Source: a bacterium
GTDB taxonomy: Bacteria; Patescibacteriota; Minisyncoccia; UBA6257; GWB1-50-10
DNA: 59,843 nucleotides
Direction of reading: 5' to 3'
Assembly (NCBI GenBank): GCA_030647415.1
Contig: JAUSKB010000016.1
Coordinates: forward strand, 1-59,843
Both the position numbers and the translations under genes were made by a program. Shown here one piece after another: positions 13,982 through 43,720 of this stretch (positions are counted from its first letter, which is position 1; every line of letters begins with the position of its first letter). A model generated the notes under the pieces. That model did no database searches. It was given only the letters and a program-made list of their open reading frames with translations, and was not told the DNA's origin.

Positions 13982-13986
13982 GGAAT

Positions 13987-14085
13987 GATACCAATATGCT
14001 AATGGTACGAATGATGCGAATCATACGAATGGAAACGGATTAGTATTATTCGTATCATTCGCATGAATTCGTATATTAGCATCAC
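13987..14085. repeat. spacer-filling palindrome family C (cgaat words), copy C1
   Basis: Arms gataccaatatgctaatggtacgaatgatgcgaatcatacgaatgg / ttagtattattcgtatcattcgcatgaattcgtatattagcatc. It fills the gap between the serS start and the lysS stop. Confidence 0.85.
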
Positions 14086-14086
14086 A

Positions 14087-15529: not shown

Positions 15530-15534
15530 TCTGA

Positions 15535-15608
15535 GATACTAATATACGAATTCATTCGAATGATACGAATAGTACTAATGCACCCCTATTCGTATCATAT
15601 ATTTTATC
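15535..15608. repeat. palindrome family C, copy C2 (right arm truncated)
   Basis: gatactaatatacgaattcattcgaatgatacgaatagtactaatg ... ctattcgtatcatat. It fills the gap between the lysS start and the greA stop. Confidence 0.8.
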
Positions 15609-18058: not shown

Positions 18059-18169
18059 GTTTACCCTGTTAGAGATTTACATGCACGCCTTTCAAAATAT
18101 ACCTGTTTGTACTAATACCAGCAGGTATACATCCAAAATGATTCTCTGTAAATCTCTAACAGGGTGAAC
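18059..18169. repeat. 107-bp-class TIR element family F4, copy 1
   Basis: Arms gtttaccctgttagagatttaca / tgtaaatctctaacagggtgaac (1 mismatch). It lies 23 nt upstream of the mrdA ATG. Confidence 0.88.
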
Positions 18170-20503: not shown

Positions 20504-20504
20504 A

Positions 20505-20653
20505 AGAGTAATCGCGAATAATGCTAATTATTGCAAATAATGCGAATGAATGCGCACTCCATTCGCATCAGTATACCTGCTATTCGCATTATTCGCGATT
20601 ACTCTTTTCATTCGAATTATTACCTTTGCTATTCGAATTATTCGCGATTACTC
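20505..20653. repeat. 149-bp complex palindrome family C-prime, copy 1
   Basis: Left arm gagtaatcgcgaataatgc. Two alternative right arms: attcgcattattcgcgattactc and attcgaattattcgcgattactc. It overlaps the last codons of proS. Confidence 0.85.
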
Positions 20654-21897
20654 CCGAGGAGCGCGGGCAGGTCCTTCAGCGCGACGAGCTCAGGCTTCCC
20701 GTTCTTGCGCTCTTTTACCTCCACCTTGTTGTGCGCGAGGGTCTTTTCGGAAACGACGAGGCGTGCGGGGATACCGATGAGGTCGGCGTCCGTGAACTTT
20801 TCCCCTGCCGACATTTCGTGCCGGTCGTCGAAGAGGACCTCCATGCCTTTTTTCGTCAGCGCCTCATACACCTTCTCGGCGTAGGCACGAACCTTTTCAT
20901 CCTCACCGAGCACAACGAGGTGCGCGGCGGCGGGCGCGACACTCCGGGGCCAGACGATGCCCCTATCGTCGTGGTGCACCTCTACGATGGTCCCCACGAG
21001 CCGGTCTACCCCGATACCGTAGGATGCCATGATAACGGGGTGGAGCGCACCCGCCGCATCGCGGTAGCGGAGATTCAGTGGCTCCGAGAACCGCGTGCCG
21101 AGCTTGAAAATATTCCCCACCTCGCTCGTCGCGACGTGCTCCACGACGCCGCCGGGGCATTTGGGGCAGGTGGCGCCGGACTTGAGCTTCGATATCTCCT
21201 TGTTCTCCGCATAGCCGCAGAGCCGGCAAAGCACCGTCTCGTCCTCGCCGGCAGACGTTTCCACCATGAACTCATGCGAGTGCTCCTTAGAGAAGTCGCC
21301 GCCCGATGCCTCCGTGACGAACGCGGTGAGCTCCATGCGCTTGAAAACCTTGAGGTAGGCGTGCTTCACCACTTCGTAAAACTCCGCAAGCGATTGCTCA
21401 TCCGCGTGGAAGCTGTAGAGGTCCTTCATGGAAAACTCCCGCCCGCGCATGAGGCCGGACTTCGCGCGCGCCTCGCTCCGGAACTTCGTCTGTATCTGAT
21501 AGGTCGAAATCGGCAGGTCGGCGTAGGAGAAAATGATATGCGTGCCGATCGCGGCGACAATCTCCTCGTGCGTGGGACCCAGGCCGTACTCCTTCCCTTG
21601 CAGGTCCCTAAACTGGTACATCACGCTCTTCATGCTCTCCCATCGGCCGGTCGCGTCCCATGCGGCGCGGGGATGGAGGGCAGGCATGAGGAGCTCCGAG
21701 GCGCCAAGCGCGTTCATCTCCTCGCGGATGATGCCGATGACCTTCTCGCGGACGCGAAATCCCAAGGGCAGGAAGGTGTGGACGCCCGCCATAAGCTTCG
21801 AGATGAACCCACCCCGCGCAAGGAGCTGCGCGTTCACCGAGACCTCATCCTTCGGGGCCTCTTTGAGCGTGCGGGAGAATAATTTTGACTGCCTCAT
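20638..21897 (-). CDS. proS: prolyl-tRNA synthetase, short form without INS editing domain
   Basis: MRQSKLFSRTLKEAPKDEVSVNAQLLARGGF..., motif 2 FRSEARAKSGLMRGREFSMKDLYSF, motif 3 SYGIGVDRL. Only 419 aa. Confidence 0.92.
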   Translation of the reverse strand: MRQSKLFSRTLKEAPKDEVSVNAQLLARGGFISKLMAGVHTFLPLGFRVREKVIGIIREEMNALGASELLMPALHPRAAWDATGRWESMKSVMYQFRDLQGKEYGLGPTHEEIVAAIGTHIIFSYADLPISTYQIQTKFRSEARAKSGLMRGREFSMKDLYSFHADEQSLAEFYEVVKHAYLKVFKRMELTAFVTEASGGDFSKEHSHEFMVETSAGEDETVLCRLCGYAENKEISKLKSGATCPKCPGGVVEHVATSEVGNIFKLGTRFSEPLNLRYRDAAGALHPVIMASYGIGVDRLVGTIVEVHHDDRGIVWPRSVAPAAAHLVVLGEDEKVRAYAEKVYEALTKKGMEVLFDDRHEMSAGEKFTDADLIGIPARLVVSEKTLAHNKVEVKERKNGKPELVALKDLPALLGSNRE

Positions 21898-22046
21898 GGA
21901 GTAATCGCGAATAATGCTAATTTAACTCAAATAATGCGAATAAATGCGCTCTATTCGCATTATTACCTCTACAATTCGCATTATTAGCGATTACTCTCTT
22001 CATTCGCATTATTATATCTGCAATTCGCATTATTAGCGATTACTCC
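21898..22046. repeat. 149-bp complex palindrome family C-prime, copy 2
   Basis: Same organisation and orientation as 20505-20653, and roughly 80 percent identical by eye. It abuts the proS ATG. Confidence 0.85.
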
Positions 22047-22047
22047 T

Positions 22048-22079
22048 TATAGTACCCAAATTTCCGCATTCGGCAACTT
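22048..22079. repeat. 32-bp direct repeat, left flank of the hicAB cassette
   Basis: tatagtacccaaatttccgcattcggcaactt; matches 22814-22845 at 30/32 positions. Confidence 0.85.
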
Positions 22080-22092
22080 ACCACAAATGGAC

Positions 22093-24627: not shown

Positions 24628-24643
24628 TACGGCGGCCCCGTGT

Positions 24644-24952: not shown

Positions 24953-24963
24953 GCGATAGATAG

Positions 24964-25257
24964 TCAGCGAGTTATGTCTTTATAGATTTTCTCTGCTCGT
25001 TCGATAATTCGCTTGGGTGTTTTCTGGCTCTTTTTCCTGAAGGCATCTACAACATACCCCGTTGATCCCACGAAGAAAAATACGATTCGATACTGTTTCA
25101 CCACCATTTCCCTAATTTTCCCTTTCAGTGGTTTAATAAGCAATCCTTCTGTGCGATTTTCCTGAAGCGACTTAAGGTGAGCAATAATCTTTGCGGTATC
25201 ATCTTCGGGAATCCTTTCGAGAAAATCGGAGGTGTCATCAAGGATCCGTATATTCAT
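24964..25257 (-). CDS. higB: RelE/ParE-superfamily toxin, Gp49/HigB-like
   Basis: ...GKIREMVVKQYRIVFFFVGSTGYVVDAFRKKSQKTPKRIIERAEK, the typical Gp49-like signature. The toxin-first gene order is as in higBA. Confidence 0.75.
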   Translation of the reverse strand: MNIRILDDTSDFLERIPEDDTAKIIAHLKSLQENRTEGLLIKPLKGKIREMVVKQYRIVFFFVGSTGYVVDAFRKKSQKTPKRIIERAEKIYKDITR

Positions 25258-25381
25258 AGCTTGCGCGCGCTATTTTGTCGACCTTTATACACTAACACCA
25301 ACAGTATAGCAATATTGCTATACTTGTAAAGAGGTGTTGTTCCGTCAGTTTTTGTCTCGTGTTTCGTGTCTCGTTATTATA

Positions 25382-25403
25382 TTATCGAAGTCGGACTTCG
25401 ATA
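25382..25403. repeat. hairpin family H copy 3
   Basis: ttatcgaagtcggacttcgata, 17 nt downstream of the rseP stop. Confidence 0.85.
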
Positions 25404-25419
25404 GATTCGATTTCTACTA

Positions 25420-26481
25420 CTACAGCAGTTTCCCCACGTCCTGCACGGTGACGATGGCCATGAGGAGAAGGAGGGCGGCGAACCCGACGCCGTTTATGGC
25501 TATCTGTACTCGGCGCGGGATGGGGCGCCGAATGAGCTTTTCAACAAGCAACACGAGGACCCGGCCGCCGTCCAAGGCCGGAAACGGAATCAGGTTCAGG
25601 ATGACCAGGTTCAGCGAGATGAGGGCGAGGAGCTGGAAAAAGTAGACCGCGCCGAGCTCGCCCGTGCGGACGGCAAAGCTCACAATACCGACCGGCCCGC
25701 TCACCTTCTGGAGCACGCCGGGCTCCGTAAAAACATTTGTGAGGAGGTACCAGAAGCTCGATGCCACCTCCCCGAGCGTCCGGAAGGTCTGGAAGAAGGC
25801 CTCGGCAATCGCCTGGTGAATCGGGAGGGCCGGAAACCCGATGGAGGTGAGCGCAATACCGAGTGAGCCCTCGCCCGGCGGCGGGGTCGCCCGCCCGACG
25901 AGCGTGACGGTGCGCGTCCCGCCCGCACCGGTGAGTTCAAGCGAGAGCGTCTTCCCCGCCGCGGACCTGGCGAGCGCGACGAATGCGTCGGCGTCTATTG
26001 GGTCCGCGAGCGCCGTCTCTCCCCATGTGGCGCGGGCGATGACATCACCCTGCACGATGCGTGCTTCAGCCGCGGGCGAACCGGACGAGACGCCACCCAC
26101 GATGAGATGCTCCGGCGCGCCGGCGGCGAAGACACCCGTCAAAATTACAAATCCGAAGAGGACGTTCATCGCTACACCCGCAAGGAGAATACCGATCCGC
26201 TTCCAGAGTGGTTTCGCTCCAAAGCGCCGTTCCGGCTCATCGCCCACCTCCTCTTCCGACTTCCCAGCCGGCTGTTCCCCGTGGATGCGCACGAACCCGC
26301 CAAACGGCAGGGCGTTCACGCTGTATGTCGTCTCGCCCACCGTCCGGCTCCAGAGCCGCGGCGGGAACCCGATACCAAACTCGTCCACGCGCACTCCGGC
26401 CGCCTTTGCCGCCAAAAAATGGCCCAGCTCATGGACCAGGATGACGAGCGACAAACCGATGATGGATAAAAAAATAATCAT
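25420..26481 (-). CDS. rseP: RIP metalloprotease RseP (site-2 protease, M50)
   Basis: HELGHF zinc motif in the first TM helix, a PDZ-like middle region, and the C-terminal motif LNLIPFPALDGG. Confidence 0.92.
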   Translation of the reverse strand: MIIFLSIIGLSLVILVHELGHFLAAKAAGVRVDEFGIGFPPRLWSRTVGETTYSVNALPFGGFVRIHGEQPAGKSEEEVGDEPERRFGAKPLWKRIGILLAGVAMNVLFGFVILTGVFAAGAPEHLIVGGVSSGSPAAEARIVQGDVIARATWGETALADPIDADAFVALARSAAGKTLSLELTGAGGTRTVTLVGRATPPPGEGSLGIALTSIGFPALPIHQAIAEAFFQTFRTLGEVASSFWYLLTNVFTEPGVLQKVSGPVGIVSFAVRTGELGAVYFFQLLALISLNLVILNLIPFPALDGGRVLVLLVEKLIRRPIPRRVQIAINGVGFAALLLLMAIVTVQDVGKLL

Positions 26482-26482
26482 A

Positions 26483-26572
26483 ATTCCTAATTTCTAATTA
26501 CCAATTTCTAATTACCAATCACAAACCAGAAATCCCCATTGGATATTAGAAATTGGAAATTAGTAATTTTAT
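26483..26572. repeat. spacer-filling imperfect palindrome (ctaat/attag words)
   Basis: ctaatttctaattaccaatttctaattaccaat ... attggatattagaaattggaaattag. The arms are colinear. It fills the gap between the rseP start and the frr stop. Confidence 0.75.
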
Positions 26573-26574
26573 CT

Positions 26575-27123
26575 TTACTCTCTAATCTCCCCTTCCTTCT
26601 TCTCGACCAGCGAGTCAATGAGCTTGTTCGCCGTATCCACCGCCTCCTGGATCTGGTCCTTGAACATGAACTTCCGATCCTCAGGCACCTCGCCATCGGA
26701 GAATCCCTGCTGGACCGACTTATTCGCCTCATCGCGCGCGTGCCGGATCTGGATGCGGTGGTCCTCCGCGAGCCGTTTCGTGTGCTTCACAAGCTCCTCG
26801 CGCCGCTCCTCGGAAAGTTCCGGGAGCCGCACCCGGACGGTAAGCCCATCCGCGGTCGCGCTCACATGGAGTGAGGAGGTTTCGATCGCCTTTATGATGC
26901 CCGGTATCGCTTCTTTATCCCACGCTTGGATGACGATGTCCCGCGGCGGCATGACGCCAACGGAGGCAACCTGCTTCAGGGGCAGGAGCTCCCCGTAGTA
27001 CATGACCCTCAGGTCCTCCACCAGCCCCGGCGAGGGCCGCCCCGTGCGGATTCCGGCAAACTCCTTCGTGAGACTGTCAGTGATGGGCTTCAGTGCGGCT
27101 CGAAAATTTTCGATGCTAAACAT
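26575..27123 (-). CDS. frr: ribosome recycling factor
   Basis: 182 aa; ...EFAGIRTGRPSPGLVEDLRVMYYGELLPLKQVASV... Confidence 0.93.
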   Translation of the reverse strand: MFSIENFRAALKPITDSLTKEFAGIRTGRPSPGLVEDLRVMYYGELLPLKQVASVGVMPPRDIVIQAWDKEAIPGIIKAIETSSLHVSATADGLTVRVRLPELSEERREELVKHTKRLAEDHRIQIRHARDEANKSVQQGFSDGEVPEDRKFMFKDQIQEAVDTANKLIDSLVEKKEGEIRE

Positions 27124-28020: not shown

Positions 28021-28150
28021 AAATCCTAAATCCTAATTTCTAAACTCTAAACAAATTCGAAACTCTAAATCTCAAACAATGCGAAGGGCTCTGAATCCGT
28101 TTCGAATTTCGTGCTTGGGATTTGTTTAGAATTTAGGATTTAGTGCTTAG
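28021..28150. repeat. spacer-filling imperfect palindrome (ctaaa/tttag words)
   Basis: aaatcctaaatcctaatttctaaactctaaacaaattcgaaac ... gtttcgaatttcg..gatttgtttagaatttaggattt. It fills the gap between the holB start and the mreB2 stop. Confidence 0.75.
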
Positions 28151-28153
28151 AGT

Positions 28154-29161
28154 TTACCTTTTAGAGAGCAGTGTCCGCTTGTAGACATCGAGGTGGTTTA
28201 AAATGGTGGCCGTCCCCTTCGCCACGCATAAAATCGCGTCTTCCGCCACATAGGCGGCGACGCCGAGCGAGCGCTTGAAGAACTCCTGAAGGTCACGGAG
28301 CTGGGCGCTACCGCCGGACAGGATAATCCCCTTCTCCATGATGTCGGCGGCGAGCTCCGGCGGCGTCACATTGAAGACGGACTGGACCGCGTTCATGATC
28401 TCCACGAGGTGGGGATTGATGGCCTCCGAAACCTCGTTCGACGTGATGGTAAGGTCTTTCGGGAGCCCCGAGGGGAGGTCTCGGCCGCGCACCTTCATCT
28501 CGATCTTCGAGCGGTTCGAAAGCGCCGTCCCCACCCCAATCTTCACGTTCTCCGCCGTCGTGTCCCCGATGGCAAGCCCATATTTCTTCCGGATATAGTC
28601 GCTGATGGACTGGTCGAACCGGTTTCCGGCGACCCGAAGCGAGGACCAGGTCACGATGCCGCCCAGGGAGATGACGGCAACCTCCGTCGTGCCGCCACCC
28701 ATGTTCACAATCATATTCCCCTCCGCCGAGTGGATGGGGATGCCCGCGCCGAGTGCCGCGAGGAGCGGCTCCTTCACGAGGTAAACCTCGCGCGCACCCG
28801 CCTCCTTCGCCGCGTTCATCACGGCGCGGTACTCGGTCGAGGTAATGCCCGCCGGCACCGAGATGACCACCTCGGGCCGGAACAGGTTCAGGGAGCCGAT
28901 GCTCTTCGCAATGAAGTACTTCAGCATCGCCCGCGTGATGTAGTACTCGGCGATGACACCATCTTTCAGGGGCCGGTAGGTCACGATGTTGTCCGGCGTG
29001 CGGCCGACCATCTCCTTCGCCTCGGTGCCCACGGCGAGCACGGTGTTGTCGGGCAGTCGGAGTGCGACGGCCGTCGGCTCGTTGATGACGATACCCTTGT
29101 CCGGCAGGAAGACAATCGTGTTCGTCGTGCCGAGGTCGATGCCAATCTTGCGGATGAACAT
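28154..29161 (-). CDS. MreB/Mbl paralogue (second actin-like rod-shape protein)
   Basis: [18 protein letters not shown]..., NMGGGTTEVAVISLGG, SGGSAQLRDL. Confidence 0.93.
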   Translation of the reverse strand: MFIRKIGIDLGTTNTIVFLPDKGIVINEPTAVALRLPDNTVLAVGTEAKEMVGRTPDNIVTYRPLKDGVIAEYYITRAMLKYFIAKSIGSLNLFRPEVVISVPAGITSTEYRAVMNAAKEAGAREVYLVKEPLLAALGAGIPIHSAEGNMIVNMGGGTTEVAVISLGGIVTWSSLRVAGNRFDQSISDYIRKKYGLAIGDTTAENVKIGVGTALSNRSKIEMKVRGRDLPSGLPKDLTITSNEVSEAINPHLVEIMNAVQSVFNVTPPELAADIMEKGIILSGGSAQLRDLQEFFKRSLGVAAYVAEDAILCVAKGTATILNHLDVYKRTLLSKR

Positions 29162-29318
29162 GAGTGGAGGAGAGTAATCAGTAATTGGTAAAAGGTAATT
29201 GGAGGCTCAAAACCAACATACGCGAGTTCCTATTACCTATTACTTGCTACTTATTACCTGTTACCAAGTACCTATTTCTATCCACCCCACTTTACCGCCA
29301 TAGCGCCGTTTTCGCAAG

Positions 29319-32229: not shown

Positions 32230-33311
32230 GGGTTAAGGAAACTTTCGTGTGGGTAAGGACAGGCAAAAGCGCTTGATGTCGTCGAGCTCTTTTGCCTGTT
32301 TTGACAGCAAGATAGACATACGCAAGTCTATCTTGCATGAAACACCCATACTGCCCAGGCTGTTCGCGTCGCATGGAGCGCCACGGAAAAACAGCGGCGG
32401 GTACCGAACGGTACCGCTGTCCAAAGTGTCGGAAGACCACTGTCATCCACCGAACGGACACCCGGAAGCGGCATCTCCGCGACCACTTTGTCGACTGGCT
32501 CACCGGCACGGACTCAAAGCAAAAGATCGCCGAGAAGCTCGGCGTTTCCCGTCAGGCATTATCTAAGGAGTTCCAGCAGTTCTTCGGCGTTGGCCTCGAG
32601 CCGCCGATTCCCACCGAACTCACGGCGAGGATCCTCATCGTGGACGGCACGTACATTGAGGGGCGGGCACTCTGCGCTCTGGTCGCCGTGACGGAGCGGG
32701 ACCGGATCTTTTGGCGGTTCGCCACAGAAGAGCGCTACGGCACCTGGCTCGCCTTCCTCGAGTCGTTCCCGCCACCGAAGGTTGTTGTGGCCGACGGTCA
32801 GAAAGGCATGCAGCGCTTCGTGAAACATCACTGGCCTCAAACCGCCTTCCAGCGCTGTCACTTCCATCTGGTCATGCTCGTCACCCACTATCTCACCCGG
32901 AATCCCTCGGAAGAGGTGGGGCGAGACATTCTCGACCTCGTGCATCGTCTTAAGTATGTGAAAGCGCCTGCAGAGCGCGACCGGTGGCTCCTACTCCACC
33001 GAATCTGGGAAAAACGGTACGAAAAGGTTTTCGCCGAACGAACCGCAGGAGGAGTATACGCACATCGGAAGCTACGAAGCGTACGGTCGGTGCTCCGCCG
33101 CGCCACACCCCAGCTCTTCACGTATTTGGACTACCCAGGGTGCCCAAACACGACCAACCTCGTTGAGGGATGGGTGAATACCGCGATTGCGGAAGGCATC
33201 GGCAGGCACCGGGGACTCACCCTGGAAAAGAAGAAAACGCTCGTGTCGGTTATCCTCTCGAATTTGAAGCGGCCGACGAGAGAAAAACCCACACGAAAGT
33301 TTCCTTAACCC
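32230..33311 (+). mobile_element. IS1-family insertion sequence (single-ORF type), 1082 bp
   Basis: Perfect 25-bp TIRs gggttaaggaaactttcgtgtgggt (32230-32254 / 33287-33311). 8-bp TSD gcgcaacg (32222-32229 / 33312-33319). Confidence 0.9.
32337..33308 (+). CDS. IS1-family transposase
   Basis: The N-terminal zinc ribbon CPGCSRRMERHGKTAAGTERYRCPKCRKT mirrors IS1 InsA (CPSC..NGKSTAGHQRYLCSHCRKT). DDE-like region ILIVDGTY...VVADGQKG...TNLVEGW. Confidence 0.75.
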   Translation: MKHPYCPGCSRRMERHGKTAAGTERYRCPKCRKTTVIHRTDTRKRHLRDHFVDWLTGTDSKQKIAEKLGVSRQALSKEFQQFFGVGLEPPIPTELTARILIVDGTYIEGRALCALVAVTERDRIFWRFATEERYGTWLAFLESFPPPKVVVADGQKGMQRFVKHHWPQTAFQRCHFHLVMLVTHYLTRNPSEEVGRDILDLVHRLKYVKAPAERDRWLLLHRIWEKRYEKVFAERTAGGVYAHRKLRSVRSVLRRATPQLFTYLDYPGCPNTTNLVEGWVNTAIAEGIGRHRGLTLEKKKTLVSVILSNLKRPTREKPTRKFP

Positions 33312-33763
33312 GCGCAACGTCAAACATATGGCCTGCGGTATTCGGGTTCACAAATCCACTCCTCATCATCATTCTCCTCATAAAGAACGGGGAACGGTGG
33401 AAGAGACTGGAGCGGTTCGAGGTGGTCTGTTTTATCCTCGGTCTTGTATCGCTCGCGGGGTGGCTACAATTCCAAGGTGAGCAACGGCTGATACAGTATG
33501 CGCTCTACACGGCGATCGTCGCGGATTCATGTGCAGCAATTCCCACGATCATGTTTGTCTGGCGCTTTCCCTTGGAGGACAGGCCGTTCGCATGGCTGCT
33601 TTTCTCGGTCGGTTACGGACTAGCGATCTTCTCCATCACAGAGCACCATGTTAGCAACTATATCCTTCCAATCTACATGGCACTTGGCTCATTTTTCGTT
33701 TCACTTCCACTCGTGCTCGAGCGTGTGAAACAGCGAGTTGTTTGGAGAGAGTGGTTGTAAGAG

Positions 33764-33791
33764 AGCCGCGAGAAAAATCTCGCGGCTTTTG
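33764..33791 (+). terminator. rho-independent terminator of the interrupted membrane gene
   Basis: agccgcgag-aaaaat-ctcgcggct followed by TTTT, 4 nt after the stop. Confidence 0.75.
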
Positions 33792-33894
33792 CATTTCCTC
33801 AAACGGTGCAACTTGTCATTCCAGACGGCCGTCTGAAATGACAAGTTATTGCAGGGACGCAATTTAGAAAGTTTTTGGTGTTTCCGCCGTGGGA

Positions 33895-33915
33895 TGGTAT
33901 GACAATGTCATACCA
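33895..33915. repeat. family P palindrome, copy 3
   Basis: tggtatgacaatgtcatacca. Confidence 0.8.
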
Positions 33916-33955
33916 CCACTCCCCATCGCCCCTCCCCCGCAACAGTGGCGCTGCG

Positions 33956-34603
33956 CTACCGCTTGCGCCACTGTTGCGGCCTTCTCGCTTTGCGGGAACC
34001 GAACTTCTTCTGTTCCACCTTCCGAGAGTCACGGGTGAGAAGACCGAGTGCCTTGAGGCGAGGACGCCAAGTTTTCTCTTTTTTGACGAGCGCCCGAGCG
34101 ATCCCCAACGAGAGCGCTTCCGCCTGCGCCTGCACGCCGCCGCCCGCCGCATGCGCCGTCACGCGAACCTCTGCGAGCGAGAGCGACGCGCCCATGAGCG
34201 GTGCGGATGCGATATGCTGGTGACGTTCAATCGGGAAGTATGCGGCAAAGGGGCGGTCGTTCACCGTGATGCCGGTTTTCACGCTCTCCGACCCCTCGTG
34301 CAATCGCACGCGCACCACCGCCGTCTTCCGTCGGCCGACCGCCTCAAAGTACCGGCCAGTGCTTTTTTGAGAAACCGCTTTCACAGCATGTCCGGCGATG
34401 CGCGGACGCCCATCCGTATCGCTGCGCACGGCGTGGTGGGCGGGCGGCGCGGCGGGACGAGCCACGTGCCGCACGGTCGGCTTCGCCGGAACTGCGATCT
34501 TCCCACCTGCCGCGTCCGCCACGCTTCGCAAGTCATGCGGGCGAACCGCGCTGTGCGTAGCACTGCGGGCAGGGTTTTTTGGCGCGGCGGGAGTTGGTGT
34601 CAT
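33956..34603 (-). CDS. rpsI: 30S ribosomal protein S9 with an about 85-aa N-terminal extension
   Basis: C-terminal 130 aa are canonical (YFEAVGRRKTAVVRVRL...SRKARRPQQWRKR). The N-terminus is Ala/Pro/Arg-rich. The ATG is 9 nt after the rplM stop. Confidence 0.9.
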   Translation of the reverse strand: MTPTPAAPKNPARSATHSAVRPHDLRSVADAAGGKIAVPAKPTVRHVARPAAPPAHHAVRSDTDGRPRIAGHAVKAVSQKSTGRYFEAVGRRKTAVVRVRLHEGSESVKTGITVNDRPFAAYFPIERHQHIASAPLMGASLSLAEVRVTAHAAGGGVQAQAEALSLGIARALVKKEKTWRPRLKALGLLTRDSRKVEQKKFGSRKARRPQQWRKR

Positions 34604-34612
34604 AGGGTTTGG

Positions 34613-35002
34613 TTATGCACGGATGAAAAGCTGGCGAAGTCGTTTGGCACGAAGACGATTCTTCGGTAGCATGTTCTGAATCGCGTGGCGGATCACCCAT
34701 CCTGGTTGCTTCCTGAACACGTCTTCAAATTTACGAACCTTGAGGTGACCGAGCTGCCCGGCGTGCTTGTAGTAGCGCTTCTGGGTCGCCTTTCGCCCCG
34801 TCACCACGACCTTCCGGGCATTCTCGATGTGCACTTCAATGGGCGCGAGGAGCCGCGGGTCGTACGTTGCCCGCCGCTTCCCCTGAAGGAGCGTTGCCAC
34901 CTCGGAGGCAATCCTGCCGAGCGGCCTTCCGGCGGCGTCGATGACATGCACTTCAGGATTTGCCGTCGCTTTCGCATTCGGTTTTCGTGGTCGTGGTGAC
35001 AT
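34613..35002 (-). CDS. rplM: 50S ribosomal protein L13
   Basis: ...HVIDAAGRPLGRIASEVATLLQGKRRATYDP...MLPKNRLRAKRLRQL. Confidence 0.93.
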   Translation of the reverse strand: MSPRPRKPNAKATANPEVHVIDAAGRPLGRIASEVATLLQGKRRATYDPRLLAPIEVHIENARKVVVTGRKATQKRYYKHAGQLGHLKVRKFEDVFRKQPGWVIRHAIQNMLPKNRLRAKRLRQLFIRA

Positions 35003-35010
35003 AAGTAGCG

Positions 35011-35361
35011 TTAGACGAATTCAATGACTGCCATTCGGGACGCATCGTGCTGCCGGGGCTTTCCGAGCTTCGTAATTTTCGTGTAGCCGCCCTTCCGGTC
35101 TTTGTATTTCGGGGCGAGGTCGTGGTAGACCGTGTACGCAACGGACTTCGGGAGCGTCTTCATGAGCAGGCGAAGCCCAGCGACGTTCTGTTTCTTGCCG
35201 TGCGTGATGTACCGCTCCACCACATGGCGGATCTCCTTCGCGCGCGCCTCGGTCGTCCGAACACGCTTGCGCGTAATGAGGTTCGCCGCGAGCCCATGCA
35301 GGAACGCACGGCGCTGACCGCGCTTTCTGCCGAATTTCCGACCGGTGGAGAGATGCCGCAT
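35011..35361 (-). CDS. rplQ: 50S ribosomal protein L17
   Basis: MRHLSTGRKFGRKRGQRRAFLHGLAANLI... Confidence 0.95.
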   Translation of the reverse strand: MRHLSTGRKFGRKRGQRRAFLHGLAANLITRKRVRTTEARAKEIRHVVERYITHGKKQNVAGLRLLMKTLPKSVAYTVYHDLAPKYKDRKGGYTKITKLGKPRQHDASRMAVIEFV

Positions 35362-35467
35362 GTTAGTTGGCTAGTTAAATAGTTGGTTAGTTTATTAGTT
35401 ATGATTCGCTTTCGTTGGACGGTACCTGTTTCAAACTACCCAACGAGTAAACGAGTCAACTGATAAA

Positions 35468-36214
35468 CTAGCGTTTCTTCTTCGTCTTCCCGCTTGGCGC
35501 TTCAAGTGAGACGGTGGGCGTCACTTCGACGCCTGCAACCTTCTCGAAATGGTCCTTTAGGATATTGCCTGCCTTATGGAGCGCTTCGGACGGCGTGATG
35601 GAACCATCCGTCTCGATCTCGAGCTGGAGCCGATTGTAGTCCGTCTGGTCGCCCACCCGCATATTCTCCACTATGAACGAGACACGGACGATTGGCGAAA
35701 AGATTGCGTCGAGCACGATGGTGCCGACCGGAAGCCGCTCAAGCCGACGCGCCTCCGCCGGGACGTAGCCGAGCCCCTTCTCGACTGTGAGCTCCACGTC
35801 GAGATCAGCCGATTTCTTGGTGAGCGTCGCGAGATGTAATGGTGTGTTGATGACCCTCGCAAACGTCGTCGATTCAATGTCTTCGGCGGTCACTGCCCGC
35901 TCGCCCTTCGCGTGGAGCGTGAGTACTTGCGGCTCGTCCGCAAAAAAGTGGAATCGAACCTGCTTCAGGTTCAGTATGAACTCGACCACATCTTCCATCA
36001 TGCCTGGAATTGTCGAGAACTCGTGGTCGACCCCCTTGACTTTGATTTGCGTGATGGCGGCGCCGGGCAACGACGAAAGCAGGGTTCGCCGGAGCGCGTT
36101 CCCCAGCGTGGTGCCGTACCCGGTGTACAGTCCTTCGATGTGGAATACGCCGATATTCTGCTCCTCGGAGACCTTTTTGATGACGACGGTGTCACTGACG
36201 TGTGTGTATTTCAT
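35468..36214 (-). CDS. rpoA: DNA-directed RNA polymerase alpha subunit, N-terminal domain only
   Basis: Canonical alpha-NTD (GYGTTLGNALRRTLLSSLPGAAIT...). The ORF ends at 248 aa (...EAPSGKTKKKR*) with no alpha-CTD. Confidence 0.9.
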   Translation of the reverse strand: MKYTHVSDTVVIKKVSEEQNIGVFHIEGLYTGYGTTLGNALRRTLLSSLPGAAITQIKVKGVDHEFSTIPGMMEDVVEFILNLKQVRFHFFADEPQVLTLHAKGERAVTAEDIESTTFARVINTPLHLATLTKKSADLDVELTVEKGLGYVPAEARRLERLPVGTIVLDAIFSPIVRVSFIVENMRVGDQTDYNRLQLEIETDGSITPSEALHKAGNILKDHFEKVAGVEVTPTVSLEAPSGKTKKKR

Positions 36215-36319
36215 CCCGTTAGAAATTTAAACATATTCGTTGATTTTTTGTATACGACTGTTTTTTGGAAACATGATTTTATTGATTCACCAATCCCGCG
36301 TAAATTTCTAACGGGATGA
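36211..36319. repeat. TIR element family F4, copy 2
   Basis: Perfect 19-bp arms tcatcccgttagaaattta / taaatttctaacgggatga. The rpoA ATG (36212-36214) lies inside the left arm. Confidence 0.9.
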
Positions 36320-36321
36320 AT

Positions 36322-36513
36322 GCGAATTTTTACTGAGCGAAGCGAAGGCTAAAAATTCAGCACCCCGCTTGATACGTTTGAAACGGAGGGCACTCCGGAT
36401 ACTCGACTGTATCCTATTTTGAGAAATATTGTCATTGGTTCGGCGATATCTAGCGGGGTAAGGTTTGATGGCTGTATTTTCTGCGCTTTCAGCTTGAAAA
36501 TCCAGACCAAGCC
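36322..36513. repeat. about 195-bp long-armed palindrome family F5, copy 1
   Basis: Left end gcgaatttttactgagcgaagcgaaggctaaaaattcagcaccccgc. Right end gcggggtaaggtttgatggctgtattttctgcgctttcagcttgaaaatccagaccaagccc. It abuts the rpsD stop. Confidence 0.85.
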
Positions 36514-36514
36514 C

Positions 36515-37114
36515 TTATCGGGCATAAAACTGGCTCACAACTGTTATGTCGAAGGGGAAATTCGTGTCGCTGGTGGTCGATGTTGCGAAAACGTTTCCGC
36601 TCATCGTGTCGGTATTGAGCTTGAGCCATGTGGGCGGCGTGAATTCTTTGAGGCGTTCCGAAAGCTCTTCAAACTGCTTCGAGTCGCGGGATTCGGGACG
36701 GATGGACACGGCGTCGCCGGGACGGAGCAGGTGTGATGCCACGCTCGAGCGGCGACCGTTCACCAGGATGTGCCCATGATTCACCAGCTGCCGCGCGATG
36801 CGCGGCGACTTCGCGAGCCCGAGCTGAAACACGACCTGGTCCAACCGATGCTCTAGCGTCTCGCGAATCGCCTGCGGCGACGGCTCGGCGAAAATCCGGC
36901 GCATCTGCCGGTCGGTGAGGCCGAAGTACCACTGAATCTTCTGCTTCTCCATGAGCTGCTTACCGTAGTCGGTTTTCGTCTGCCGCCGCTCGCCGTGCTG
37001 GCCCGGACGCGACGGCCGGCGTACCATGACGCACTTCGGTGAATTGCAACGGTCCGCCTTCACAAAGAGCTTCACGCCCAATGCCCGTTCTTGTTTTTCG
37101 GTGATTCGTTTCAT
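36515..37114 (-). CDS. rpsD: 30S ribosomal protein S4
   Basis: Zinc-knuckle N-terminus (ADRCNSPKCVMVRRPSRPGQHG) and an S4 RNA-binding domain (RLDQVVFQLGLAKSPRIARQLVNHGHILVNG). Confidence 0.95.
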   Translation of the reverse strand: MKRITEKQERALGVKLFVKADRCNSPKCVMVRRPSRPGQHGERRQTKTDYGKQLMEKQKIQWYFGLTDRQMRRIFAEPSPQAIRETLEHRLDQVVFQLGLAKSPRIARQLVNHGHILVNGRRSSVASHLLRPGDAVSIRPESRDSKQFEELSERLKEFTPPTWLKLNTDTMSGNVFATSTTSDTNFPFDITVVSQFYAR

Positions 37115-37310
37115 GCCGATTTTATTTGAGCGGAGCGAAATTTAAAATCGAGCACCCCGCACCACTTTTGCAGCAAGGTAGTGATTCAATGATGGTGTGT
37201 GTGATAGATGTCATATTTTTCAGTAATGATTCGTGAGGCAAAAGTGGTGCGGGGTAAGGTTTGGTGGCTGTATTTTCTGCGCCTTCGGCTTGAAAATCCA
37301 GACCAAGCCC
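37115..37310. repeat. long-armed palindrome family F5, copy 2
   Basis: Inner perfect 18-bp stem accccgcaccacttttgc / gcaaaagtggtgcggggt. The outer right arm is near-identical to 36453-36513. It exactly fills the gap between the rpsK stop and the rpsD start. Confidence 0.88.
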
Positions 37311-37763
37311 TTATACGCGTCGCCGCTTCTTCGGCCGTGGACCGTTGTGCGGGATGGGCGTGCAATCGCGCACCGCAGTGATATTGAAACCTTTAGCTGC
37401 GAGCGTCCGCATCGCGGAATCTCGGCCTTTGCCAATACCCCGCAACACGATTTCCACGTTCGTTGGCCCCGACCGCTTCACTTTCTCCGCAATCGCCTCC
37501 GCAACCTTCGAGGCCGCAAATGGCGTCGCCTTCTTCGGACCGGAAAACCCGAGCGACCCCGCGGACATCCATGCTACCACGCCACCCTTCAAATCGGTCA
37601 CGGTAATCATGGTGTTATTGAACGAAGTGTGGATGTAAATCTTGCCGGCGTCCAAGCGCTGCCTGGTGCTCTGCGCCGACTTGGCAGCCGCGGTTGCTTC
37701 GACCGCCTCGGATTCCTTGATGAGGTCGTCCTGGTTCTTCGTGATGGTCTTTTTCTTTCCCAT
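37311..37763 (-). CDS. rpsK: 30S ribosomal protein S11
   Basis: ...GKIYIHTSFNNTMITVTDLKGGVVAWMSAGSLGFSGPKKATPFAA... Confidence 0.95.
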   Translation of the reverse strand: MGKKKTITKNQDDLIKESEAVEATAAAKSAQSTRQRLDAGKIYIHTSFNNTMITVTDLKGGVVAWMSAGSLGFSGPKKATPFAASKVAEAIAEKVKRSGPTNVEIVLRGIGKGRDSAMRTLAAKGFNITAVRDCTPIPHNGPRPKKRRRV

Positions 37764-37777
37764 ACGTTCGTTCGGCG

Positions 37778-38161
37778 TTACTTTAGGTCGACCTTCCGCT
37801 TGCCGCTACCGGCAGTCTTTCGGACGTTCCCGCGAATTGTGCGTGAATTCGTCTTGGTGCGCTGTCCGCGAACGGGCAGTCGGCGGGCGTGTCGGGTTCC
37901 CCGGTAACACTTAATATCCTTCAAGCGGGCGACATTCTGACGGACCTGCGACCGCAACTCCCCCTCCACGGTAAGGTGCTTCTCGAGGAACGTCTGAATA
38001 CGGTTCACCTCTTCGGGCGTGAGATCCTTCGTCCGCTTCTCCGGGGCGATACCGGTTCCCACAAGAATCTCCTCGGCGCGCGTGGCGCCGATGCCGTAGA
38101 CGGAGCGGAGACTCACGGCAATCTTCTTGGTATCAGGGATGTTGATGCCGACGATTCTCAT
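37778..38161 (-). CDS. rpsM: 30S ribosomal protein S13
   Basis: MRIVGINIPDTKKIAVSLRSVYGIGATRAEEIL... Confidence 0.95.
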   Translation of the reverse strand: MRIVGINIPDTKKIAVSLRSVYGIGATRAEEILVGTGIAPEKRTKDLTPEEVNRIQTFLEKHLTVEGELRSQVRQNVARLKDIKCYRGTRHARRLPVRGQRTKTNSRTIRGNVRKTAGSGKRKVDLK

Positions 38162-38163
38162 AA

Positions 38164-38274
38164 TGATACAAATATACTAATGGTACGAATGATACTAATC
38201 ATACGAATGGGAATTCGTTGGTGTTATTAGTATTATTCGTATCATTCGCATGAATTCGTATATTGGTATCGCAC
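38164..38274. repeat. palindrome family C, copy C3
   Basis: gatacaaatatactaatggtacgaatgatactaatcatacgaatggg ... ttagtattattcgtatcattcgcatgaattcgtatattggtatc. It fills the gap between the rpsM start and the rpmJ stop. Confidence 0.88.
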
Positions 38275-38387
38275 TAGCCCTGCCTCTGCTTATGCTTCTT
38301 GTTCACACAAATAACGAAGACACGACCACGGCGTCTGACCGTTTTGCATTTCATGCAGATTTTCTTTACTGATGAGCGTACCTTCAT
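38274..38387 (-). CDS. rpmJ: 50S ribosomal protein L36
   Basis: Not in the ORF track (too short). The minus strand encodes [37 protein letters not shown], canonical L36 in its usual place between infA and rpsM. Confidence 0.9.
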
Positions 38388-38490
38388 CCTGTTAGAGTTT
38401 TACACGCAATCCAACTGCGTGTAAAAAGTTTTTCGTTTGGCAAACAAGTTTCCATAGGATTCGTGGGTTTGTAAAACTCTAACAGGATGA
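38384..38490. repeat. TIR element family F4, copy 3
   Basis: Perfect 21-bp arms tcatcctgttagagttttaca / tgtaaaactctaacaggatga. The rpmJ ATG (38385-38387) lies inside the left arm. Confidence 0.9.
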
Positions 38491-38502
38491 ATGGAACCCT
38501 TT

Positions 38503-38727
38503 CTAGAACCTGCGGACGATTCTGCCACGACGGTCGTCGTACGGGGTCATCTCGACCATGACACGGTCGCCAGGTATGACGCGAATGCGGTGCAACTTCA
38601 TCTTCCCGGCAAGGTGTGCGAGGACCTCCTTTCCGGTCTTGTCCTCGGTAATGCGAAAGAGAAGCCCAGGTAATGCTTCCTGGACAGTTCCTTCAATCCG
38701 TACTATCTGTCCTTCGTCTTTTGGCAT
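38503..38727 (-). CDS. infA: translation initiation factor IF-1
   Basis: MPKDEGQIVRIEGTVQEALPGLLFRI...KMKLHRIRVIPGDRVMVEMTPYDDRRGRIVRRF. The tracked 38760 start is probably too long. Confidence 0.92.
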   Translation of the reverse strand: MPKDEGQIVRIEGTVQEALPGLLFRITEDKTGKEVLAHLAGKMKLHRIRVIPGDRVMVEMTPYDDRRGRIVRRF

Positions 38728-38898
38728 CCTGAAGCCTCGCACCGAATACGCAATACACAATACACATAGCTAAGTATACAAATGAGGCGGGAGATGTCAA
38801 GCACAACTGCAAGTAATAGGCAAAAGGTAATTGGTACTAGGGGAACCCAGCGCTTTTCTTATTACCTATTACTCATTACCTATTTCTCTCCATGAGCG

Positions 38899-40611
38899 CT
38901 ACTCCACCACGACCGTGATTTTCCGGGAATCGTTCGGCGCCCGGCGGACCCAGAACGGCCACAGATGCACGGTTGCCTTCGAGATGCCGGGAATGTCTGA
39001 AAGCATTGAGTTGAGCTTCGTTTCATCCTTGCCCAGTATGAGCGTGGTAAGTGCAGTGCTATCGAGCACATACCGGAGCGCTACCGTGCCGGATGCCGCG
39101 ACCGTGAGTGTACCACGATCGAAGTCGACTGTTGGCACCTCGAACGACGCATCGATCGAGTCCACGGTGAGCGACGAGGACTGCTGCGCCGCCGCACGCA
39201 CCGCCCGTGCGCCAACCGCCTCCTTGAACATGCGGTCATCAAAGACAATCTGCTTGAGCGACGCCTCACCGAACAACCGAAACGTACCGGAATCGTCCCC
39301 CGACGAGCGGAGGCGGCGCAGAACGACGAACCGCGTTGCGTCACGGAGCTCCGTAAAATGCTCATTTGCGGTGAGGAGCACCAGCTCGCTCACGAGCGCA
39401 TCACGGAGCGACGCATCGAGCGACTGCACCGCCCTCGCCTCCTCTTCCTTCGTGGGCGCTGCCCGTTCGCCCATGAAACCGCCCCGGAGTGCGTCCGGCG
39501 CCGCCGCGGTGAACGTATCATATTTCGGCGTACCCTGGAATCCCGGAATCCGCCATCCGTCGCTCGCAGGGACATTATGCGCCTCCCCGGCCGCATCAGC
39601 CGTCACCGAAACAGTCGTCGTGGACGATTGGATGGTTCCCCCAGAAACCCGTGCACCGGGAATGACCGATCGCTGGTTTAAGCGGAACACCGTGCCCTCC
39701 GGCGAGACAAACCGGGTCGTTGCGACCAGCACTTGCGGTTCCGAACTGAACGCGTTCGTCACCACGAGTGTTCCCGACGCCTTCGTGGCCACACGTTCCG
39801 TCCCTGCCGTCGGGAAGGTGAGCTCCAACGTGCGCCGTGCGTCGAACGACTGTGCAGGCAGCACGATGCGCGTGCCGGTACTCTCGGGCGCAGTGACACG
39901 GACCGAGGCGTCGATCAATTCCATGAACGGGATGGGAATCCGTGCGGCGCGAATCGTGACGGTCGCGCGCGGCACCACCGCGGTCGCCACCCACCAGCCT
40001 CCCCCGAGTACCGCGGCGGCGCATACGGAAATCACCAGGACGCGGAACCAGTGCGGTGACCGCTTGGGACGCTCCGGCTCCGGCTCTGGAACCGCGGCAG
40101 GTTGTGTGTCCTTCGTCGAACGTTCGCTGTTTTCAATTTCGAGTTTTGACTCTTCGCGCTCAACTTCTTGACGTTCGATATCAGACGTTAGACGATCTGC
40201 GGCAGATTCCACCGCTTGCGCATTCAATCCACCTCGCCCGCCTCGCCGAGACGTCGAGTCGAGGCTGGGCTGGAGCCGCGACGAAGCGGACCCGACGAGT
40301 GGGCGAGTCGAGGCGGGCCGTGCGATGATATCGGAAACAGCCCGCTCCTTCGAGTGGAAGAATGCGTTGCGGGATGGGATCCCGGCGAGCGACGCGAGTT
40401 CGAGGATATGGTCGTCCGCCGACTCGATCATGAGCTCCTTCCCCGCGTGCTCGGCTTCCCGGCGCAAGAGGTGGAAATTCTGCACCGAAACGCCAATGTC
40501 GGCTCCGGACGGGATGGTAAGCATAATCCTCGTGGAATCCTCGGTAAGGATCTTTTCCACGATTGCCGGGAGGCTATCCCCGCGCGCAATGAGTATTTTT
40601 TTCTCGGTCAT
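38899..40611 (-). CDS. hypothetical bitopic envelope protein carrying an in-frame family A element
   Basis: 570 aa: a cytoplasmic N-domain, one TM helix (VLVISVCAAAVLGGGWWV), and a large beta-rich C-domain. The insert ...SASSRLQPSLDSTSRRGGRGG... is element A3. Confidence 0.65.
   Translation of the reverse strand: MTEKKILIARGDSLPAIVEKILTEDSTRIMLTIPSGADIGVSVQNFHLLRREAEHAGKELMIESADDHILELASLAGIPSRNAFFHSKERAVSDIIARPASTRPLVGSASSRLQPSLDSTSRRGGRGGLNAQAVESAADRLTSDIERQEVEREESKLEIENSERSTKDTQPAAVPEPEPERPKRSPHWFRVLVISVCAAAVLGGGWWVATAVVPRATVTIRAARIPIPFMELIDASVRVTAPESTGTRIVLPAQSFDARRTLELTFPTAGTERVATKASGTLVVTNAFSSEPQVLVATTRFVSPEGTVFRLNQRSVIPGARVSGGTIQSSTTTVSVTADAAGEAHNVPASDGWRIPGFQGTPKYDTFTAAAPDALRGGFMGERAAPTKEEEARAVQSLDASLRDALVSELVLLTANEHFTELRDATRFVVLRRLRSSGDDSGTFRLFGEASLKQIVFDDRMFKEAVGARAVRAAAQQSSSLTVDSIDASFEVPTVDFDRGTLTVAASGTVALRYVLDSTALTTLILGKDETKLNSMLSDIPGISKATVHLWPFWVRRAPNDSRKITVVVE
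40232..40319. repeat. GC-rich palindromic element family A, copy A3
   Basis: Core identical to A1/A2. The right end gggcgagtcgaggcgggcc is the reverse complement of the A2 left end. Confidence 0.88.
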
Positions 40612-40612
40612 T

Positions 40613-40717
40613 TACCCTGTTAGAGTTTTACAGACACACAAATATCTCACAAAGTTTTGTTCGCGCAATAACAAATTTTTATATGCAATGGATTATGTGT
40701 AAAACTCTAACAGGGTA
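40613..40717. repeat. TIR element family F4, copy 4
   Basis: Perfect 20-bp arms taccctgttagagttttaca / tgtaaaactctaacagggta. The left arm starts 2 nt from the ATG of 38899..40611. Confidence 0.9.
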
Positions 40718-40734
40718 GACCCTTCTGTTTTGTA

Positions 40735-40756
40735 TGTAAACTTCTAACAGGGTGAA
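40735..40756. repeat. solo F4 arm
   Basis: tgtaaacttctaacagggtgaa, an extra right-type arm 18 nt after copy 4. Confidence 0.75.
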
Positions 40757-40773
40757 TGTTCTTTATAATACAA

Positions 40774-42073: not shown

Positions 42074-42182
42074 GTTTACCCTGTTAGGGTTTTACACACA
42101 AATTTTTCCGGATAAAAACCTATGTTCTGACACAAAAAAAACACCAGGACGCGGATTGCTCGTAAAACCCTAACGGGGTATA
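42074..42182. repeat. TIR element family F4, copy 5
   Basis: Arms gtttaccctgttagggttttaca / cgtaaaaccctaacggggtatac. It lies 11 nt upstream of the ATG at 42063. Confidence 0.85.
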
Positions 42183-42250
42183 CCGTAGACAGTAACGCGT
42201 ATACAGTCACCATCTTCCTGTGTCTCTCGTTTCTTCTCTCTTGTCGCTGT

Positions 42251-43609: not shown

Positions 43610-43617
43610 GCAACTAT

Positions 43618-43720
43618 GATACTAATATACGAATGGTACGAATGATACTAATGGATACGAATGGGAATCTATTGGTAGTATTCGTATCATTCGAATGCAT
43701 TCGTATATTGGTATCACGCT
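43618..43720. repeat. palindrome family C, copy C4
   Basis: gatactaatatacgaatggtacgaatgatactaatggatacgaatggg ... gtagtattcgtatcattcgaatgcattcgtatattggtatc. It fills the gap between the ATPase start and the upstream stop. Confidence 0.88.

Follow-up and report, generated by a model that had tools for sequence, protein, structure and literature searches.

Palindromic repeats between the genes of a Parcubacteria ribosomal operon: probable MITE-like insertions at stop/start junctions

In the infA-rpmJ-rpsM-rpsK-rpsD-rpoA operon on the minus strand of contig JAUSKB010000016.1 (assembly GCA_030647415.1), long palindromes lie between the stop codon of one gene and the start codon of the next, and the question raised by this locus is whether such a layout was selected as a property of the operon or was left behind by something else. 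The stretch analysed (59,843 nt, hereafter the window; GC 0.58 overall) comes from the tiny, high-GC genome of a groundwater member of the Parcubacteria, in the candidate phyla radiation (CPR), and an initial annotation had proposed that the base of each hairpin would bring a stop and the next start together. We find that the palindromes belong to dispersed repeats of at least four families, other copies of which occur elsewhere in the window and in other genomes. Because they are dispersed repeat families with target duplications, the evidence points to colonisation by mobile DNA rather than to an evolved operon architecture, and the edge-to-edge layout is best read as the footprint of insertions into minimal spacers by elements that resemble MITEs (miniature inverted-repeat transposable elements), not as a conserved operon design. 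It is likely, in our judgement, that at least four MITE-like foldback families, non-coding and ~75-200 nt long, colonised junctions that were formerly minimal.

Repeat families and their hairpins

The 60-kb window carries five copies of family 1, four of family 2, about four of family 3 and two of family 4, as elements of 75-200 nt. Family 1 consists of 22-nt arms, CCYGTTAGARNTTTAC (CCYGTTAGRRNTTTAC), around a variable centre of ~55-65 nt, for a total of ~100-110 nt; its arm motif is matched 11 times in the window, where 0.02 matches are expected, and in the five copies the arms are 20-23 nt long and 91-100% complementary. The infA-rpmJ copy (38383..38491) has perfect 22-nt arms (TTCATCCTGTTAGAGTTTTACA; 38383-38404 and 38470-38491, 100% complementary) with the rpmJ ATG in the 3' arm, and the copy that forms the 3' part of the rpsD-rpoA gap (36210..36320) has perfect 20-nt arms (36210-36229 and 36301-36320, also 100% complementary), within which lies the rpoA ATG; the initial annotation had rightly placed both start codons inside a repeat arm. 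The remaining copies lie between mreD-like and PBP2 genes (18059..18169), between a TrwB-like gene and a 428-aa gene (42074..42183), and at 40609..40758, where one copy (40613-40717) is accompanied by a solo arm (40731-40758).

In family 2, a foldback, each arm is an array of tandem 9-mers. Its copy in the rpmJ-rpsM gap (38162..38273) is built of TAATGATAC repeated 5.6 times and the complement, with 34-nt arms at 38174-38207 and 38218-38251 that are 79% complementary; other copies are found in serS-lysS (13983..14086), at 43610..43720 and, as a partial copy in the opposite orientation, in lysS-greA (15530..15606). Family 3 lies on either side of proS, as one element with arms GAGTAATCGCGAATAATGC in the proS-mreB gap (20504..20653) and as two tandem copies directly 5' of the proS ATG (21881..22092). 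One arm of the former (20631-20653) covers the last ~13 nt and the stop codon of proS, so that an essential gene apparently owes its C-terminal codons and its stop to the repeat. Two further foldbacks have arms of tandem repeats, with units of 7/14 nt in rseP-frr (26481..26575) and of 7 nt in holB-mreB2 (28021..28155).

The initial annotation had seen a single palindrome at 37115-37310 and another at 36322-36513, an assignment that has to be revised: the rpsK-rpsD gap and the first 195 nt of the rpsD-rpoA gap are each a mosaic of three separate hairpins, H1, H2 and H3, whose outer ends do not pair, and these mosaics constitute family 4. In the rpsK-rpsD copy (37115..37310, minus strand), H1 (~37254-37313) has the TAA stop within its stem, H2 (~37156-37255) has a perfect 18-bp stem (arms 37154-37171 and 37238-37255, 18 nt, 100% complementary) and H3 (~37112-37155) ends in CGGC directly before the ATG. 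The second copy, in the 5' part of the rpsD-rpoA gap (36321..36514, minus strand), has an H1, a 66-nt 5' module, that is 95% identical to 37249-37314 and an H2 that is family 1-like (ACCCCGCTAGATA), as are several other family 4 central hairpins (ACCCCGTTAGATA). Families 3 and 4 have copies in the related contigs L113, L116 and L117 as well as in the window.

Fold z scores were computed against dinucleotide shuffles, both as RNA and as single-stranded DNA. With the flanking codons included, the RNA scores are -5.3 for infA-rpmJ, -4.6 for rpmJ-rpsM, -6.1 for rpsK-rpsD and -5.1 for rpsD-rpoA; the four gaps alone, without those codons, score -3.5 to -5.8 as RNA, and the scores as single-stranded DNA are -5.5 to -7.4. 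All four operon palindromes are thus far more stable than shuffled sequence (z <= -3.5), and the strong folding read into them at the outset is borne out. The same layout had been claimed for five other gaps, of which four fold well (serS-lysS -7.5, mreB-proS -8.6, rseP-frr -5.4 and holB-mreB2 -4.3, as RNA) while lysS-greA reaches only -2.7. Since scores of -3.5 or below are found in 13 of the 35 co-directional gaps of 30-330 nt in the window, the feature is genome-wide and not specific to the ribosomal operon. Whether the base of a stem would bring the stop next to the start depends on the family. By partition function, the stop-proximal and start-proximal 20 nt share 4.7-14.8 expected pairs in family 1 and 2 gaps, where that part of the proposal stands, and 0.00 in family 4 gaps, where it does not; the duplex of H1 with H3 (-17.2 kcal/mol) is weaker than their two self-folds combined (-20.1 and -10.6).

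Orthologous gaps in relatives and copies in metagenomes

Gene order around the operon is kept in the related contigs L115, L116 and L118, and the contents of the gaps are not. In the window the gaps measure 115 nt (infA-rpmJ), 112 nt (rpmJ-rpsM), 14 nt (rpsM-rpsK), 196 nt (rpsK-rpsD) and 300 nt (rpsD-rpoA), so that four gaps are filled, as had been noted, and one, rpsM-rpsK (37764..37777, minus strand), is free of any element and represents an unoccupied site in this genome. The four filled gaps sum to 723 nt, as against 3-41 nt for each gap between called genes in L115 (S4 77% identical) and 8-18 nt in L118 (S4 61% identical), both without palindromes. L113 and L114, with S4 93% identical, are occupied differently: infA-rpmJ holds family 4 where the window has family 1, rpmJ-rpsM a family 4 variant where the window has family 2, rpsM-rpsK a 65-nt palindrome where the window has none, and rpsD-rpoA family 3 with a decayed family 1 arm where the window has family 4 with family 1. 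At the orthologous rpsK-rpsD site, family 4 has near-identical outer modules in the window and in L113, and its central hairpin, H2, has been swapped for an unrelated one. L117 (S4 88% identical) has only the right family 1 arm before rpoA, half an element, and L116 (S4 66% identical) has family 1 before rpmJ and family 4 in rpmJ-rpsM, rpsM-rpsK and rplQ-rplM, with rpsK-rpsD and rpsD-rpoA gaps of only 6 and 16 nt. Outside these gaps, a 162-nt gap of the window that contains one and a half family 1 elements (the 40609-40758 region) has as its counterpart in L115 an ATGA overlap of stop and start.

Presence/absence polymorphism at orthologous sites is therefore seen between the window and each of L113, L115, L116, L117 and L118, while the protein termini are unchanged across these relatives despite the differing contents of the gaps. 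Conservation of the pairing in relatives, on which the initial annotation had made its proposal depend, is not what we find: L115 and L118 are free of palindromes, L113 carries other families and L116 has them in other gaps. A candidate filled/empty pair downstream of fusA (L121 against L165/L166) has flanks too diverged for a clean comparison and different downstream genes. The empty rpmJ and rpoA starts of L115 (~5020-5045 and 6625-6645) bear the mini-palindromes CATTCA-TGTA-TGAAAG and TTTCA-ACCGTA-TGAAA, which resemble core-less family 1 flanks and could be excision footprints or reflect a preference for palindromic targets.

A scan of metagenome contigs with a two-arm pattern returned 45 loci, representing 39 unique family 1 copies, from hosts of 35-62% GC, one of which is a Candidatus Zambryskibacteria by EF-G. 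The two-arm pattern gave 0 matches in viral contigs, and a 15-base arm pattern found only single chance matches, in unrelated taxa (L001-L112), in genome contigs. Perfect 4-bp direct repeats, read in the four-base segments one position out from the CCYG...CRGG core, flank 12 of the 39 copies, where 3.6 +/- 1.6 would be expected; none of 20,000 flank shuffles reached 12, and the excess is confined to this one offset and length. The duplicated sequences are TGAA (six times, counting both strands), TAAA/TTTA, TATA, TGTA and CACG. Inverted flank matches of the kind that the window has (TTCA...TGAA) show no enrichment among these copies (6 observed, 6.7 expected).

Family 1 ends are also strongly enriched at gene boundaries, as the initial annotation had anticipated for the hairpins at large. 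In 16 of the 39 copies (15 loci) the first base past the core (position +1) is the start of a genuine gene, meaning one that has at least 120 codons or was recognised by sequence or Pfam; among these genes are rpmJ in three lineages, ssb in two, rplV, gatA, rpoA, a gene with a PSP1 domain that follows tsf, and a type IV secretion system (T4SS) pilin gene. L137, L122, L125 and L128 have the TGA stop of the upstream gene within the left duplicate and the ATG of the downstream gene within the right, and in most verified copies the stop is 0-16 nt from the 5' arm. Across the 39 copies 90.9% of arm cells are paired, and the arms covary strongly, with 96 double-sided changes against 44 +/- 8 in shuffles. 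From this it follows that the likeness of the two arms is maintained by something, but not on which molecule or for whose benefit.

Proposed insertion at stop/start junctions and its alternatives

How might an inserted element come to run exactly from a stop to a start? Junctions of ancestral type in the relatives measure 3-20 nt or overlap. We suggest that the ancestral junctions were a few nt long or were ATGA-type stop/start overlaps, and that such junctions would have been essentially the sole places where an insertion spares genes. The target of family 1 appears to be TNNA, in very many cases TGAA taken from an ATGAA start or a TGA-A stop. An insertion would duplicate 4 bp, and the element's terminal bases (...T on one side, A... 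on the other) would restore the codons; in the simplest case, insertion between the A and the TGAA of ATGAA, either at an ATGA overlap or at a start a few nt past the stop, the terminal A would restore the ATG. The left edge would then carry the upstream stop, and the downstream ATG would fall at the right arm or within it. It would be because such an insertion duplicates TGAA and rebuilds the ATG that a start codon lies inside an arm, with stop and start at the two edges. The layout would in that case be an insertion footprint filtered by purifying selection: if junctions are the sole non-lethal insertion points, a surviving element should span the distance from stop to start. Such elements would be transcribed through within the operon mRNA, and their fold may hold stop and start close enough for expression to survive, the least harmful elements presumably being those with ends that rebuild codons and a fold that joins both ends. 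The left flank of two window copies reads TTCA, not TGAA. For the rpoA copy, the end of the preceding family 4 element, ...TTCGCA, suggests an original GCA-TGAA of which two central bases have changed, and the change from TGAA to TTCA may have been made by palindrome-correcting template switching or by selection against a duplicated upstream ATG.

Several observations weigh against an origin by insertion of MITE-like elements. Only 12 of the 39 family 1 copies have a clean duplication, the flanks of the others extending the palindrome, and no target duplication is recognisable for families 2-4. The interiors of family 1 are unrelated (~55% identity, the random baseline; a few pairs are related, for example the copies before rpoA in the window and before rpmJ in L116, at 67%), while its arms are nearly invariant and agree with each other at all four variable positions in 30 of the 39 copies, in 13 haplotypes; this combination is unlike the product of a recent burst from a single master copy and implies constraint or correction acting on the arms. 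The presence of family 1 at the rpmJ start in three lineages could reflect ancient retention rather than repeated insertion, and the family 4 copies (36321-36514 and 37115-37310 in the window, and those in L113 and L116) share a single orientation relative to transcription. No autonomous transposase with family 1 arms was found in the window or in ~50 further loci, and the only insertion sequence (IS) in the window, at 32230-33311, has terminal repeats unrelated to the palindrome families.

Signs of a dedicated RNA function were also sought. No Rfam family matched at its gathering threshold, the best match being Alpha_RBS (E = 0.48), and ribosomal-protein leaders are ruled out, as the structures are not conserved at orthologous sites and are repeated elsewhere. 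Inside the gaps we found no terminator-like sites on the coding strand, the start codon following directly after the stems, and intrinsic terminators are ruled out by the lack of a U tract on that strand. The one strong promoter-like site, TTGACA-16-TATACT (11/12), lies 5' of infA (38773..38800, minus strand) and is the probable operon promoter; together with the terminator-free gaps it is consistent with read-through. Promoter-like sites inside the elements (5, against 2.4 +/- 1.6 expected) are all weak and not significant in number. Sense RNA is the more stable strand in 12 of 27 gaps, the mean difference of 2.4 kcal/mol favours antisense, which is also the better-folding strand in each of the four operon gaps; in the family 4 gaps, six of eight have an antisense strand 4.5-19 kcal/mol more stable than the mRNA strand. 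GGAG or GAGG, as a Shine-Dalgarno (SD)-like sequence at -18..-4, precedes 4 of the 57 window genes, compared with 11% of random 15-mers. The operon starts do lack an SD, as had been noted, and this is nothing special to them, the absence being genome-wide; initiation in this host must rely on something other than SD.

The proposal from which this analysis set out, that hairpins were selected to put each stop by the next start so that terminating ribosomes reinitiate without an SD, is accordingly weighed against these data and appears very unlikely. It would account for the pairing of gap ends in families 1 and 2, for perfect stems of 20-22 bp with the ATG within an arm, for stops within a terminating ribosome's reach of the 5' arm and for the covariation of the arms, and coupling may matter in a genome without SD sequences; yet the orthologous sites differ (compact in L115 and L118, other families in L113, half an element in L117), the elements are dispersed repeats with target duplications, the family 4 gaps hold three independent hairpins with no end-to-end pairs, the antisense folds better in four of four operon gaps and rpsM-rpsK has no hairpin at all. 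A role for the hairpins in translational coupling would thus, as far as sequence comparison can tell, draw no support from conservation, strand bias or the family 4 folds. RNase III is known to cleave Correia elements, and differential expression within operons has been reported for REP (repetitive extragenic palindromic), ERIC and Correia hairpins. Elements of mobile origin might likewise have been exapted here as RNase III or RNase E sites, or as barriers to 3' exonucleases, that tune operon expression, which we regard as unlikely. The long, near-perfect double-stranded stems would suit such a function, as would their location inside what is probably a single transcription unit, with one promoter-like site and no terminator-like sites between genes, and REP offers a precedent, to judge from the reference list of PMC3184786, for regulation by an intercistronic element. 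No effect of this sort would be conserved, however, because occupancy differs between relatives that are 93% identical, and the stability of the folds shows no strand bias.

A different route to the same arrangement, in place of that of classical DDE-transposase MITEs, would be REPIN-like: the hairpins would be moved as single strands by an HUH/tyrosine enzyme, either RAYT (REP-associated tyrosine transposase)-like or IS200/IS605-like, or would be kept by hairpin-templated correction. Two highly conserved inverted 22-nt units around a poorly conserved spacer of 55-65 nt match the architecture described for REPINs (PMC3116915), the agreement of the arms across haplotypes and the uniform orientation of family 4 copies would fit, and the mosaic build-up resembles that of bacterial interspersed mosaic elements (BIMEs). 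Against this, a single arm is not palindromic, its folding energy of 0 to -0.1 kcal/mol being no lower than that of shuffles; target duplications of 4 bp, significant here, typify DDE transposition and not Y1/HUH enzymes; and no RAYT was noticed among the proteins scanned in the 60-kb window; on balance we think this route quite unlikely. Imperfect palindromes with conserved ends and a variable centre in every gap also bring to mind the attC-like sites of an integron-type cassette array, and the layout is superficially alike, with an arm, GTTAGAR / YTCTAAC, that resembles the attC core GTTRRRY / RYYYAAC. An attC site has RYYYAAC at its 5' end and GTTRRRY at its 3' end and lies next to mobile cassettes and an intI gene, whereas here the order is reversed, with GTTAGAR 5' and YTCTAAC 3' on either strand, no integrase lies nearby, target duplications are present and the genes are not cassettes but core genes, ribosomal and housekeeping, whose synteny is shared with L115, L116 and L118. 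The reversed motif order and the conserved synteny effectively rule out attC sites.

Insertion of MITE-like elements into minimal junctions thus remains the reading that we prefer. A bolder version of it, which is speculative and which we would not expect to hold, is that family 1 is a Parcubacteria-wide foldback that homes to junctions, entering ATGA stop/start overlaps or splitting the A from the TG of ATGAA starts, and regenerates both codons, that the upkeep of its arms depends on the hairpin, and that the stem is needed for reinitiation across 100-300 nt without an SD. Were this true, translationally coupled operons could take up the elements as natural spacers, and downstream translation would require the hairpin.

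Comparison with known repeats and the surroundings of the operon

No described architecture of this kind was known to the initial annotation, but analogues have been described in REP, Correia, MIRU and REP2 sequences; our search, within a set library of papers, for repeat elements in CPR or Parcubacteria turned up nothing relevant. The Correia/NEMIS elements of Neisseria are short, non-coding and dispersed, with terminal inverted repeats and short duplications, are polymorphic among strains, lie next to genes and are co-transcribed as hairpins. The elements described here are like these MITEs in being short and non-coding, with terminal inverted repeats, short duplications (in family 1) and many polymorphic copies beside genes. 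They differ in that the target of Correia/NEMIS is TA, whereas family 1 duplicates 4 bp at TNNA (often TGAA within ATGAA), in that family 1 interiors are unrelated and its arms near-invariant across hosts of 35-62% GC, and in that there is no known parent IS, the hosts are streamlined CPR genomes and the location is inside a ribosomal protein operon. The MIRUs of Mycobacterium tuberculosis, reportedly described by Supply et al. in 1997, are said to be repeats in operon gaps that overlap the upstream stop and the downstream start and so preserve the translational context. The window elements similarly sit in operon gaps with ends that overlap the flanking stop and start; MIRUs, by contrast, are direct tandem repeats carrying small open reading frames (ORFs), with no target duplication or hairpin. 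Rickettsia palindromic elements also invade a reduced genome, often in frame within coding sequences. Like them, the present repeats are palindromic and appear to be tolerated only where gene function is unbroken; unlike them, they keep to the space between a stop and the next start, the one exception being the family 3 arm over the 3' end of proS.

A REP unit is itself an imperfect palindrome. The 22-nt arm of family 1 is not, and family 1 differs further from REP and REPIN in its target duplications and in the lack of a RAYT identified in the 60-kb window. As judged from the reference list of PMC3184786, REP was first described as an intercistronic operon element (Higgins, 1982). A REPIN consists of two conserved inverted units and a less conserved spacer, forms a hairpin and commonly shows compensatory changes (Bertels and Rainey, 2011; PMC3116915), all of which can be said of family 1 with its variable spacer, and family 4, as a mosaic of modules, is like BIMEs. 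Neisseria REP2 and the inverted repeats of Borrelia are dispersed and lie directly 5' of genes with the ATG included (Delihas, 2011; PMC3184786), as the window repeats do. REP2 supplies a promoter and a ribosome-binding site; the window elements supply neither promoter nor SD, and their ATG would be host sequence regenerated by insertion. The general properties of MITEs are described in PMC3184786, and the present elements have terminal inverted repeats, a duplication (family 1), small size, many copies and polymorphism, with no parent IS identified. The repeat families themselves are undescribed, but they are MITE- or REPIN-like in kind, and a neat detail is an insertion that would rebuild both stop and start codons.

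The genomes of CPR/Patescibacteria have the reputation of being streamlined, with little mobile DNA. In one Parcubacteria lineage, undescribed palindromic repeat families have expanded essential operons several-fold, and family 1 offers a concrete rule by which mobile DNA could enter tightly coupled operons, namely to duplicate a 4-bp stop/start target and rebuild the codon. Such repeats fragment metagenome assemblies and risk being mistaken for regulatory RNAs; they could also be used as strain-typing markers and as natural insertion experiments on SD-less translation initiation.

The genes of the operon, all on the minus strand, are infA (IF-1, 74 aa, 38503..38727; Pfam eIF-1a on orthologues), rpmJ (L36, 37 aa, 38274..38387, ATG 38385-38387), rpsM (S13, 37778..38161), rpsK (S11, 37311..37763), rpsD (S4, 36515..37114) and rpoA (248 aa, N-terminal domains only, 35468..36214, ATG 36212-36214), followed by rplQ, rplM and rpsI. 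They were identified by Pfam matches on orthologues and by conserved N and C termini, and since these termini agree with orthologues on five related contigs the gene boundaries can be taken as genuine; the stop and start positions in the initial annotation, rechecked against the sequence, are all correct. The palindromes are not an assembly artefact, as the independent Logan assembly L164 is 100% identical across 33347-38200 (4.85 kb of the operon). An exact-sequence look-up of the window rpmJ matched no record, and the best S4 homologues bear the Parcubacteria lineage names Jorgensenbacteria, Brennerbacteria and Paceibacterota (Patescibacteria). RpoA is 246-251 aa long throughout the lineage (window 35468-36214 and the orthologues in L113-L118) and matches only RNA_pol_L and RNA_pol_A_bac, so the alpha C-terminal domain appears to be missing.

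The IS at 32230-33311 is 1,082 bp long, with perfect 25-bp terminal inverted repeats (GGGTTAAGGAAACTTTCGTGTGGGT), and encodes a 311-aa Mutator/IS256-like transposase (Pfam MULE, Transposase_mut). Two near-perfect palindromes, at 33810-33847 (38 nt) and 56307-56348 (42 nt), share the centre GACGGCCGTC; the two, one of which is located in a convergent gap, might represent either another small repeat family or bidirectional terminators. Other intergenic regions contain non-palindromic tandem arrays of 7-8-mers, at 29229-29276, 57881-57920, 38860-38884, 6434-6470 and 35364-35400, with the units CCTATTA (x6.9), TTACCTG (x5.7), TATTACC (x3.6), ATAGGTA (x5.3) and GTTAGTTG (x4.9), which are similar in style to the units of the foldback arms. 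Finally, GC falls to 0.46-0.54 (0.58 overall) at ~22000-25400, where several small ORFs lie between rseP and proS; these ORFs are absent from the otherwise syntenic L118, and the stretch may be an inserted island.

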